NCBI RefSeq assembly: GCF_044324785.1 | Contig: NZ_CP172127.1 | Reading direction: 5' to 3' (one strand) | DNA from: Escherichia coli | GTDB taxonomy: Bacteria; Pseudomonadota; Gammaproteobacteria; Enterobacterales; Enterobacteriaceae | Length of the DNA: 64,000 nt | In this document: positions 5,479 through 46,558 of the stretch, in pieces | How positions within the stretch are numbered: the stretch's first letter is position 1 | Layout: each line of letters begins with the position of its first letter | Position numbers and translations under genes: made by a program | The notes under the pieces: generated by a model | Seen by the model: the letters and a program-made list of their open reading frames with translations, nothing else | Told to the model about the DNA's origin: nothing | Databases searched by the model: none

Positions 5479-8169
<2,691 letters not shown>

Positions 8170-44241: not shown

Positions 44242-45036
44242 ATGAAACCAACCACTATTGCTTCATTGCAGAAATGCAAGCAGGACAAAAAACGTTTCGC
44301 GACAATAACCGCTTACGACTATAGCTTCGCAAAACTGTTTGCCGATGAAGGGCTTAACGTGATGCTGGTCGGCGATTCACTGGGCATGACGGTTCAGGGG
44401 CATGACTCCACGCTACCGGTTACCGTTGCTGATATCGCCTACCACACTGCCGCCGTACGTCGCGGTGCGCCAAACTGCCTGCTGCTGGCTGACCTGCCGT
44501 TTATGGCGTATGCCACACCAGAACAAGCCTTTGAAAACGCCGCAACGGTTATGCGTGCCGGGGCCAACATGGTCAAAATTGAAGGCGGTGAGTGGCTGGT
44601 AGAAACCGTACAAATGCTGACCGAACGTGCCGTTCCTGTTTGTGGTCACTTAGGTTTAACCCCACAGTCAGTGAATATTTTCGGCGGCTACAAAGTCCAG
44701 GGGCGCGGCGATGAAGCGGGCGATCAACTGCTCAGCGATGCATTAGCATTAGAAGCGGCAGGCGCACAACTTCTGGTGCTGGAATGCGTACCGGTTGAAC
44801 TGGCAAAACGTATTACCGAAGCGCTGGCGATCCCGGTTATCGGTATTGGCGCAGGCAACGTTACCGATGGACAGATCCTCGTGATGCACGATGCGTTCGG
44901 CATTACTGGCGGTCATATCCCTAAATTTGCCAAAAATTTCCTCGCTGAAACGGGCGACATCCGCGCGGCTGTGCGGCAGTATATGGCTGAAGTGGAGTCC
45001 GGCGTTTATCCGGGCGAAGAACACAGTTTCCATTAA
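44242..45036 (+). CDS. panB: 3-methyl-2-oxobutanoate hydroxymethyltransferase
   Basis: 264-aa [63 protein letters not shown]... Confidence 0.97.
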
Positions 45037-45047
45037 GGAGTCACGTT

Positions 45048-45899
45048 GTGTTAATTATCGAAACCCTGCCGCTGCTGCGTCAGCAAATTCGCCGCCTGCG
45101 TATGGAAGGTAAGCGCGTGGCGCTGGTGCCAACCATGGGTAATCTGCACGATGGCCATATGAAGCTGGTTGACGAAGCCAAAGCCCGCGCCGATGTGGTC
45201 GTCGTCAGTATTTTCGTTAACCCAATGCAGTTTGACCGCCCGGAAGATCTGGCACGTTATCCACGGACCTTGCAGGAAGACTGCGAGAAGCTAAACAAAC
45301 GTAAAGTGGATTTGATTTTCGCGCCTTCGGTAAAAGAGATCTATCCGAACGGTACTGAAACCCACACCTATGTTGATGTTCCCGGTCTTTCTACCATGCT
45401 GGAAGGTGCCAGCCGTCCGGGACATTTTCGCGGCGTTTCGACTATCGTCAGCAAGCTGTTCAATCTGGTCCAGCCGGACATCGCCTGCTTCGGTGAAAAA
45501 GATTTTCAGCAACTGGCGCTAATCCGCAAAATGGTTGCTGATATGGGCTTTGATATTGAGATTGTCGGTGTGCCAATTATGCGCGCCAAAGATGGTCTGG
45601 CGCTGAGTTCCCGTAACGGTTATCTGACGGCGGAACAACGCAAAATTGCGCCTGGTCTGTACAAGGTTTTAAGTTCGATTGCCGACAAATTGCAGGCTGG
45701 CGAACGGGATCTTGATGAAATTATTACTATTGCCGGGCAAGAACTGAATGAAAAAGGCTTCCGCGCCGATGATATTCAGATTCGTGATGCCGACACATTG
45801 CTGGAAGTCTCTGAAAACAGCAAACGTGCCGTGATTCTGGTAGCCGCCTGGCTTGGCGATGCCCGCCTGATCGACAACAAAATGGTCGAACTGGCGTAG
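45048..45899 (+). CDS. panC: pantoate--beta-alanine ligase
   Basis: 283-aa ORF (GTG start, AAGGAG upstream) [41 protein letters not shown]... Confidence 0.97.
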
Positions 45900-45980
45900 T
45901 ACTTAACTGGCGCTACGGCTGATGGCGCCAGTTATTCATTGCCACGTCATCTGTAAGCAATTATTCATATCGTAGACAAC

Positions 45981-46250
45981 TTAGTTAGAGTTAATTAGCT
46001 TATCAATCTCTGCAAGAGATAAAGCTGTCACCTCTGCAACGTCTTCCCGAGACATCCCTTTATTCAGAAAACGTTGGGCGAATTCCTGTCTTACTTCCTG
46101 TCTTACTTCCTGTCTTACTTCCTGTCTTACTTCCTGTCTTACTTCCTGTCTTACTTCTTGATACGCTTCTTGATACGCCTTCTGAAATCCCTTCTCTTCA
46201 AACCACTGCGCTAACGTCTGCCTGGTTTCTCTCCGTGTCTTTATTTCCAT
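45981..46250 (-). CDS. standalone small protein homologous to the C-terminal tail of RpnC (RpnS / YpaA-like), with an (EVRQ)6 repeat
   Basis: 89-aa ORF MEIKTRRETRQTLAQWFEEKGFQKAYQEAYQEVRQEVRQEVRQEVRQEVRQEVRQEFAQRFLNKGMSREDVAEVTALSLAEIDKLINSN; AAGGGA 4 nt upstream of the ATG; nucleotide segment about 85% identical to the rpnC 3' end. Confidence 0.7.
   Translation of the reverse strand: MEIKTRRETRQTLAQWFEEKGFQKAYQEAYQEVRQEVRQEVRQEVRQEVRQEVRQEFAQRFLNKGMSREDVAEVTALSLAEIDKLINSN
46085..46180 (-). repeat. In-frame 12-bp tandem repeat array inside the small Rpn-tail gene
   Basis: 6 perfect copies of cctgtcttactt (46085-46156) plus 2 copies of cttgatacgcyt (46157-46180); encodes (EVRQ)6 and (EAYQ)2 on the minus strand. 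Confidence 0.95.
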
Positions 46251-46318
46251 ATGTTCCCTTAATTATCTGGTCAGTTAACAATAACAATTATCTGGCTATA
46301 ACTGATAATACAGACAAC

Positions 46319-46558
46319 TTAGTTAATCAGTTTATCAATCTCAGCAAGAGGTAAATTTGCCATCTCTGCAACGTCTTCCCGAGACATTCCTTTACTCAGA
46401 AGACGCTGGGCGAATTCCTGACTTACTTCCTGTGTTACTTCCTGTATTACCTCTTGTCTTACCTCTTGTCTTACCTCCTGTCTTCCTTCCTGTCTTCCTT
46501 CCTGTCTTCCTTCCTGTCTTCCCCTCTCTTCAAACCACTGCGCCAGCGTCATCATAGA
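46319..46558 (-). CDS. putative intragenic small ORF in frame with the rpnC C-terminus (RpnS-type candidate antitoxin)
   Basis: In-frame ATG-ATG at 46553-46558 (MMTLAQWFEERGRQEG...KLIN, 79 aa) preceded on the minus strand by acGGGAGGGGAGtct, a strong Shine-Dalgarno 3 nt upstream, inside the rpnC coding sequence. Confidence 0.45.
   Translation of the reverse strand, partial: SMMTLAQWFEERGRQEGRQEGRQEGRQEVRQEVRQEVIQEVTQEVSQEFAQRLLSKGMSREDVAEMANLPLAEIDKLIN

Follow-up and report, generated by a model that had tools for sequence, protein, structure and literature searches.

The nucleases of the Rpn family are toxic, play an antiphage role and are restrained by antitoxins encoded inside their own genes. 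The closest described systems come from the work of Zhong, Hickman, Storz, Dyda et al. (Zhong et al. 2023; PNAS 120:e2307382120; PMC10400941, Fig. 2I, SI Figs S3C and S6). These authors demonstrated the intragenic translation of RpnC_S in K-12 and found that RpnC_S neutralises RpnC_L only if both carry the same number of 4-aa repeats. One repeat added to either RpnC_S or RpnC_L abolishes neutralisation, and its addition to both restores it (PMC10400941). The solved RpnA_S is described as a dimerisation module that binds RpnA_L directly (PMC10400941). Separately encoded relatives were also described. The gene ypaA is a second copy of RpnE_S, named rpnE_Ss, and expression of its product in K-12 was detected by SPA tagging; in other bacteria, standalone DUF4351 (PF14261) genes lie beside rpn genes (PMC10400941). 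A further such gene, rpnC_Ss, was described and named in the same work, where it is phylogenetically derived from RpnC and clusters with RpnC_S; the paper gives its existence only, the working strain K-12 being without the gene (PMC10400941). Separately encoded rpn small genes were noted to be losable by deletion or fusion (Zhong et al. 2023, PMC10400941).

Here we analyze such a locus in a stretch of 64,000 nucleotides from Escherichia coli, referred to as the window. In the window panB and panC both lie on the plus strand, and an intact 89-aa ORF on the minus strand, starting MEIKTRRETRQ, separates panC from rpnC just as the original prediction had described (Table 1). The gap between panC and rpnC measures 419 bp, compared with 73 bp and no ORF inside in K-12, which agrees with the ~420 and ~73 bp given earlier. 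It is essentially certain that the feature is the published rpnC_Ss (Zhong et al. 2023), that is, the same and already known gene. We found no literature on rpnC_Ss later than this paper and no earlier report that compares the repeat numbers of RpnC_L and RpnC_Ss across strains. What is new here is the observation that the repeat numbers of RpnC and RpnC_Ss match at chance level only.

Table 1. Features of the panC-rpnC-panD region in the window.
Feature	Position	Strand	Description	Basis
panC (pantoate--beta-alanine ligase)	45048-45899	plus	convergent neighbour; 283-aa ORF	panC annotation in syntenic RefSeq loci
GC-rich hairpin	45906-45932	.	CTGGCGC-N11-GCGCCAG; between convergent panC and rpnC_Ss	10-bp stem in RNA fold
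Duplicated block, downstream copy	45963-46217	minus	TLAQ codon to 18 nt past stop	alignments, left boundary shuffle-tested
rpnC_Ss	45981-46250	minus	89 aa, begins MEIKTRRETRQ; standalone copy of the RpnC C-terminal (Rpn_S) domain	ORF list, RpnC alignment, TIGR01784
rpnC_Ss repeat tract	46080-46187	minus	nine 12-nt units: FQKA YQEA YQEV RQEVx5 RQEF; helix 1	unit parsing
rpnC to rpnC_Ss spacer	46251-46318	minus	68 nt; Shine-Dalgarno-like AAGGGA at 46255-46260	
Duplicated block, upstream copy	46301-46549	minus	inside and just beyond rpnC	alignments
rpnC (RpnC_L)	46319-47275	minus	318 aa; PD-(D/E)XK recombination-promoting nuclease, toxin	TIGR01784 283 bits, full length; RefSeq rpnC annotation
Predicted intragenic RpnC_S ORF	46319-46555	minus	78 aa, MMTLAQWFEE...; Shine-Dalgarno GGAGGGGAG at 46560-46568	sequence of this allele
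RpnC tail repeat tract	46412-46519	minus	nine 12-nt units: RQEGx3 RQEVx3 IQEV TQEV SQEF	unit parsing
panD	47549-47929	plus	other flank of the rpnC insertion site; 126-aa ORF	panD annotation in RefSeq loci

The alignments show that rpnC_Ss arose from the 3' end of rpnC through a partial tandem duplication. Residues 236-318 of RpnC align to the 89-aa protein without a gap, at 73% identity over 83 residues (E 6e-37), far above what chance would produce. On the nucleotide level, the duplicated block of ~250 nt starts at the ACG codon of TLAQWFEE, comprises the 12-nt repeat tract and the stop, and continues for ~18 nt beyond it; its two copies show a mean column identity of 84%. The duplication proposed in the original prediction therefore stands, but its extent does not: the block is about twice as long as noted there, and the alignment reaches ~18 nt past the stop instead of ending after 8-12 nt. 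Likewise, the similarity between 45969-46096 and 46304-46428 is real, but its identity had been set at ~85% and amounts to 81.7% (107/131 columns).

The 5' end of the gene appears to be of a different origin. The 101 nt upstream of TLAQ, consisting of the 68-nt spacer and 11 codons, have no significant similarity to rpnC, with a local alignment score of 17 against a shuffle mean of 15.8, a score of 17 being reached by 150 of 500 shuffles. This bears out the notion that the small protein has its own N-terminus. A duplication reaching further upstream of TLAQ, suggested by the resemblance of RDRETGG to TRRETRQ, was rejected, as it falls within the shuffle distribution. A second copy of the novel 82-nt 5' segment was not present in 5426 complete E. 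coli genomes (blastn, word size 11). At the position in rpnC that matches the edge of the duplication lies the internal start of RpnC_S, GGAGGGGAG-N5-ATGATG (46550-46568). In rpnC_Ss this original start is missing and a new ATG is used, preceded by the Shine-Dalgarno-like UAAGGGA, which ends 4-6 nt before it. All alleles seen, those of E. marmotae among them, conserve UAAGGGA, so the ribosome-binding site that had been called from the window is indeed present. The length of the 68-nt spacer is also constant in all fetched loci with both ORFs intact, again including E. marmotae.

Searches at the protein level place RpnC_Ss in the Rpn family. Residues 7-85 match positions 193-273 of the 273 in TIGR01784, the NCBIfam Rpn-family model (E 3.4e-8), which covers the neighbouring RpnC over its full length; together with the alignment above, this confirms the small protein as a homologue of the RpnC C-terminal tail. 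A Pfam-A scan of the 89-aa protein and 26 alleles gave no match at E <= 0.001; PF14261 (DUF4351) in particular did not reach this threshold for the 89-aa protein and came to 1.8e-3 in only two of the 26 alleles. PF27070 (HTH_Rpn_C) was absent from our own Pfam scans. Among precomputed matches it is marked weak for the Ss alleles of 71 and 65 aa and is listed without a strength mark for other short Ss alleles. An AlphaFold2 model built on the 26 alleles (mean pLDDT 80) contains helices at residues 6-63, 68-75 and 79-86, and the modelled combination of one long helix and two short ones would correspond to the architecture reported for RpnA_S. Foldseek returned 7TH0 (E. coli RpnA-S) as the top PDB match with a TM of 0.69 normalised by target length, an E of 3.3 and a probability of 0.44, a match that is not significant alone. 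Neither the single protein nor a profile retrieved 7TH0 in sequence searches of the PDB, and their matches, only designed repeat proteins, helix-turn-helix domains and unrelated coiled coils, were discarded. PADLOC has no model for RpnC and gave only sub-threshold noise for the small protein.

The transcription context was analyzed along the same lines. Between rpnC and rpnC_Ss a terminator scan found neither terminator nor hairpin, and the predicted fold is no more stable than that of shuffled sequences (z +0.27). A consensus promoter and terminator scan of the minus strand detected no promoter for rpnC_Ss; the relaxed scan yielded at best TTGTCT-19-GATAAT, and a convincing sigma-70 promoter is absent, which leaves a dedicated rpnC_Ss promoter unsupported. 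With no terminator between the genes and no convincing promoter, the simplest reading is that rpnC_Ss would be co-transcribed with rpnC and with the internal rpnC_S transcript. The GC-rich hairpin downstream is probably a terminator shared by panC and rpnC_Ss. In K-12 the matching hairpin stands directly after rpnC. The consensus terminator scan missed this element because its loop is longer than 8 nt. An Rfam scan of 45800-47600 gave no match.

The Ss-specific junction (46205-46318) was found in 1555 of 5426 complete E. coli genomes (~29%), always on the chromosome and always at the panC-rpnC locus. Carriers among the matches include Nissle 1917, an O25:H4 strain, JJ2434, CE10, IAI39, SMS-3-5 and PCN033, and rpnC_Ss is absent from K-12, Sanji, ST540 and O157-type strains. 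The gene is thus neither found in K-12 nor shared by most strains. We take the carriers to represent roughly phylogroups B2, D and F and the non-carriers phylogroups A, B1 and E. E. marmotae and unnamed Escherichia species also have homologues, which share this N-terminus and the 68-nt spacer; the species range is taken from protein-database names. The occurrence of these homologues argues for the rpnC/rpnC_Ss arrangement being old and for K-12-type loci being probably secondary. A scan of species-representative genomes for the junction pattern matched a single contig, a fragment resembling E. coli that had been binned into an Oscillospiraceae MAG.

Annotation of the gene is inconsistent. RefSeq labels for rpnC_Ss vary from hypothetical protein and transposase to pseudogene 'missing N-terminus' and 'RpnC/YadD family protein'. 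Older PGAP runs called it a pseudogene in CE10, Nissle 1917, IAI39 and KE48 ('incomplete; missing N-terminus'), and recent runs give a complete CDS named 'RpnC/YadD family protein'. All sampled loci without a disruption, the window included, have an open reading frame, and a pseudogene status in the sense of a broken frame or no usable start was ruled out, with ATG and Shine-Dalgarno sequence conserved and the frame intact. An open frame is weak evidence of selection since slippage by 12 nt preserves it; the better argument for a functional gene would be the conservation of start codon, Shine-Dalgarno sequence and N-terminus across species. The pooled pN/pS for non-repeat codons is ~0.5, compared with 0.31 in the corresponding part of the RpnC tail; the estimate is based on a small sample and raised by conversion tracts. 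It suggests that the constraint on rpnC_Ss is only moderate.

The first helix carries hypervariable 4-aa repeats. Tandem Repeats Finder reports 6.2 copies of period 12 at 100% match in rpnC_Ss (46083-46157, the identical RQEV run) and 8.8 copies of period 12 in the RpnC tail (46415-46520), and the two arrays have an identical consensus unit. The nine units of RpnC_Ss occupy residues 22-57, in a family whose alleles range from one to nine units. The start at residue 22 lies just outside the range of 8-20 quoted for Rpn_S, because the N-terminus of RpnC_Ss is longer. The RpnC and Ss alleles in the window are the longest seen, and the exact sequences of both are absent from a collection of ~15 billion proteins. 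The nearest Ss allele has six units compared with nine here; together with the 6.2-copy array at 100% match, this points to recent slippage behind the nine-unit tract. Within the window pair the first three repeats differ in composition, with FQKA/YQEA/YQEV in Ss and three copies of RQEG in RpnC.

To compare the two tracts we measured helix length from the W of WFEE to the R of REDV in the RpnC tail and in Ss within each locus, which reduced ~55 loci to 23 distinct allele pairs, tallied without phylogenetic weighting. The lengths are unequal in 21 of these 23 pairs. Equal lengths occur in the window (52/52 residues, nine units each) and in one further lineage (40/40). A permutation gives 1.8 matches expected by chance against the two observed (P = 0.58), and the Spearman correlation of RpnC-tail and Ss lengths is 0.29 (p = 0.19). 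Co-variation of the repeat numbers is therefore unsupported, and there is no sign of selection for cognate length matching. One Ss allele adjoins rpnC alleles of 306, 310 and 314 aa in different loci, and the 'RLAQRLL' Ss alleles, which are common, do not even keep the 4-residue register (34 or 30 residues as opposed to 40-48). Since the lengths are mostly unequal, the separately encoded Ss copy is decoupled from the neighbouring RpnC and, by the published rule, would usually not be its cognate antitoxin. Throughout Escherichia both tracts vary independently, and cognate pairing is the exception and not the rule. By the same repeat rule, the Ss protein of the window would be cognate to its RpnC_L.

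Both copies also exchange sequence. At seven sites that are diagnostic for typical RpnC tails versus Ss, contiguous stretches of the opposite type are seen in several alleles, and in both directions, as in the mosaic Ss alleles LLsssss, LLLLsss and LLLLLLL and, for instance, the mosaic L allele ssLLLLL. Two fusion alleles (P0001 and P0002) start with MMTLAQ but have Ss-type repeats and end in INSN. A third one (L059) belongs to a single-copy rpnC with an Ss end of the type L041, an Ss-type flank and, before panC, the gap of 81 nt that is specific to Ss. At least three forms of single-copy locus exist, namely the K-12 type, the L059 type and the O157 type, and this implies several independent resolutions of the duplication. 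On repeated occasions rpnC_Ss was lost, whether through deletion, fusion or an IS insertion. These fusion alleles and the several single-copy forms agree with, and extend, the remark on loss by fusion in PMC10400941.

How RpnC_Ss could act in the strain analyzed here is best described stepwise. The last ~250 nt of rpnC, from TLAQWFEE to 18 nt past the stop, were duplicated in tandem, and the copy then gained the new 11-codon N-terminus and its own Shine-Dalgarno sequence. It lies 68 nt downstream of rpnC on the same strand, behind a terminator-free interval, and may be transcribed together with rpnC and the internal rpnC_S transcript. In the translated protein, a long helix would precede a small helix-turn-helix-like pair. 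This first helix, with its hypervariable 4-aa repeats, could pair with the RpnC_L tail of identical length in the way the intragenic RpnC_S does, and such pairing would hold the nuclease toxin RpnC_L inactive. With nine repeats, or 52 residues, in both tails, RpnC_Ss could thus serve as a second, independently dosed antitoxin for the antiphage RpnC_L. The arrangement fits the scheme of an Rpn_L toxin and an Rpn_S antitoxin that the original prediction had invoked. We lean towards this reading for the window, with reserve, because both tails carry nine repeats and the repeat-number rule of Zhong et al. 2023 would make them partners. In its favour we counted the homology, the equal lengths, the conserved junction, ATG, Shine-Dalgarno sequence, N-terminus and spacer, and the RpnA_S-like modelled fold, as well as the lack of a terminator between the genes, the SPA-detected YpaA and the match to the C-terminal part of TIGR01784. 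Counted against it were the length mismatches in 21 of 23 pairs, the moderate pN/pS, the lack of a dedicated promoter and of a Pfam-A match, the differing first three repeats and the E of 3.3 for 7TH0.

The same mismatches are the starting point of another explanation, in which RpnC_Ss is generally not the antitoxin of its neighbour but a paralogue with decoupled specificity, or a recombination cassette, whose tail has been freed from the co-evolution of L and S. It might act in one or more ways: as a donor and recipient in gene conversion and tail swaps that change the toxin-antitoxin specificity of rpnC, as a neutraliser of non-self RpnC, or as a titrator of RpnC_S. Besides the unequal pairs and the Ss allele found beside rpnC alleles of different repeat number, this would accommodate the mosaic tracts in both directions, the fusion alleles, the at least three kinds of single-copy loci and the loss by fusion noted by Zhong et al. 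(PMC10400941). It would also accommodate K-12 YpaA, which has one repeat (KLEG) more than RpnE_S. The equal lengths in the window speak against it, however, and conversion between 85%-identical adjacent repeats is expected with or without selection; moreover, the diagnostic sites number only seven and the ~55 loci carry no phylogenetic correction. We hold this explanation, the main rival, to be rather doubtful. Its more specific version, that the standalone tail escapes the 'obligatory co-evolution' of Rpn_L and Rpn_S and serves as a cassette for switching RpnC specificity or neutralising non-self RpnC, and not as a spare antitoxin, seems to us unlikely. If it were true, length-matched states such as the 9/9 of the window would be transient.

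Moderate constraint and repeated loss would equally suit a non-functional relic, with the ORF as a decaying fragment of a partial duplication, and the pseudogene annotations in four strains and the lack of its own promoter in the scans point the same way. Yet conservation of the ATG, the Shine-Dalgarno sequence and the 11-residue N-terminus extends from E. coli to E. marmotae, the gene is present in 1555 genomes and unbroken in all sampled loci without a disruption, it figures as a complete CDS in newer PGAP runs, and the analogous YpaA is expressed (PMC10400941), all of which makes a relic distinctly improbable. Finally, RpnC_Ss could be an autonomous small regulator that binds DNA through its two C-terminal helices and controls rpnC or other genes. 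The Pfam tail family is named HTH_Rpn_C (PF27070), and weak sub-threshold similarities connect the protein to HTH_7, HTH_3, DNA invertase, sigma-factor region 4 and TrpR-like folds. All of these similarities remain below significance, though, an operator-like repeat was not identified, and the solved RpnA_S acts as a dimerisation module on RpnA_L itself (PMC10400941), so that we give a DNA-binding role hardly any weight.

A separate copy of the antitoxin domain breaks the built-in coupling of toxin and antitoxin and could change antitoxin dose, specificity or evolvability. As RpnC and RpnC_Ss usually differ in repeat number, the role of RpnC_Ss can be tested with natural allele pairs, and the strain described here offers a naturally matched 9/9 pair. 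There is also a point for annotation: rpnC_Ss often wrongly bears the label of a transposase fragment or pseudogene, as does ypaA.

Among the known systems, the intragenic RpnC_S is the nearest relative, with 73% identity to RpnC_Ss in the window. Both are predicted to have the same domain, a long helix bearing the repeats and two short ones, as in RpnA_S (PDB 7TH0). RpnC_Ss differs in being a separate gene and in its N-terminus, which is nine residues longer (11 residues before TLAQ instead of two); separate encoding frees its repeat number from having to match that of RpnC_L. The standalone DUF4351 genes of other bacteria likewise hold the Rpn_S domain as a separate gene, but RpnC_Ss, unlike them, has no significant PF14261 score. 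The likeness to the rpnE-ypaA pair pointed out in the original prediction is borne out as well. In K-12, ypaA (rpnE_Ss) is a same-strand tandem partial duplicate of an rpn 3' end that forms a standalone Rpn_S-type gene, it is called a pseudogene by PGAP, and its repeat number differs from that of the intragenic copy. Still, the ypaA duplication is clean and retains the original internal ribosome-binding site (AAGGAGAG) and start (MTIAERL) behind a 12-nt gap, whereas in rpnC_Ss the original MM start and Shine-Dalgarno sequence are gone and a new 11-codon N-terminus, a new Shine-Dalgarno sequence and a 68-nt spacer are found. YpaA and RpnC_Ss are only 27% identical, and the two genes hence arose independently. 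Compared with the published rpnC_Ss, the allele of the window, with 89 aa and nine repeats, is longer than the other full-length Ss proteins found (57-77 aa), and it happens to equal its neighbour in repeat number.

The panB–panD locus in the window looks mosaic at the sequence level. Its identity to every complete E. coli genome is at most about 97%, and panB and panC together carry 47 mismatches over 1658 nt relative to the best-scoring genome; the spacers flanking rpnC_Ss, the separately encoded copy of the RpnC C-terminal tail, are identical to that same genome.

Strain 350 (L057, NZ_CP018243.1) has a panC-rpnC gap of 298 bp and no rpnC_Ss in it. The additional DNA, located between panC and the GC-rich hairpin shared among these loci, holds aatccccaggagcttacataagtaagtgactggggttagcg, which we take to be an ERIC/IRU-type repeat. 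A long panC-rpnC spacer therefore does not always signify rpnC_Ss.

The loci also differ in the repeat helix of RpnC itself, which is short (28-32 residues) in all four single-copy loci (L001, L057-L059), compared with mostly 40-52 residues, and 24 in one lineage, where it adjoins an Ss copy (L002-L053). A second repeat tract nearby might promote tract expansion in RpnC, but this sample is too small to establish it. On the opposite strand, the ORF list contains reading frames of 46-66 aa with SYFL/LPV-type repeats; we rejected them as genes, as they are the 12-nt repeat tracts read in reverse.

Features discussed in the text, with coordinates in the window or in the comparison locus
Feature	Sequence	Coordinates	Strand
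panB–panD locus	window	44242-47929	
Region of the convergent 3' ends of panC and rpnC_Ss	window	45880-46000	
Antisense ORF (rejected)	window	46074-46214	+
Antisense ORFs (rejected)	window	46357-46654	+
panC-rpnC gap, strain 350	L057	394-691	
ypaA/rpnE_Ss, RefSeq record	L055 (K-12)	6434-6631	
True start of ypaA	L055 (K-12)	6446	

In two UK bloodstream isolates (L046, NZ_OZ546911.1; L056, NZ_OZ547117.1) the rpnC locus is damaged by insertion sequences. One has an IS3-family element in place of rpnC_Ss; in the other, IS1A copies have split rpnC and duplicated the segment, which gives that genome three Ss-junction copies. An E. coli-like panC, rpnC_Ss and rpnC tail were also found on a 4337-bp contig (L054, CALXDF010000219.1) from a metagenome-assembled genome labelled 'uncultured Oscillospiraceae bacterium', almost certainly misbinned Escherichia.

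ExcludonFinder lists rpnC-panC in MG1655 as a convergent excludon (PMC12288877, Table 1). In carrier strains rpnC_Ss, in place of rpnC, would form the overlapping 3' ends with panC. An annotation problem is common to rpnC_Ss and its K-12 analogue ypaA, the tail copy downstream of rpnE: the K-12 RefSeq record L055 labels ypaA a pseudogene with a 'missing N-terminus' and places its start at the rpnE stop, and the experimentally detected 61-aa ORF has its true start further on, with its own RBS, AAGGAGAG.
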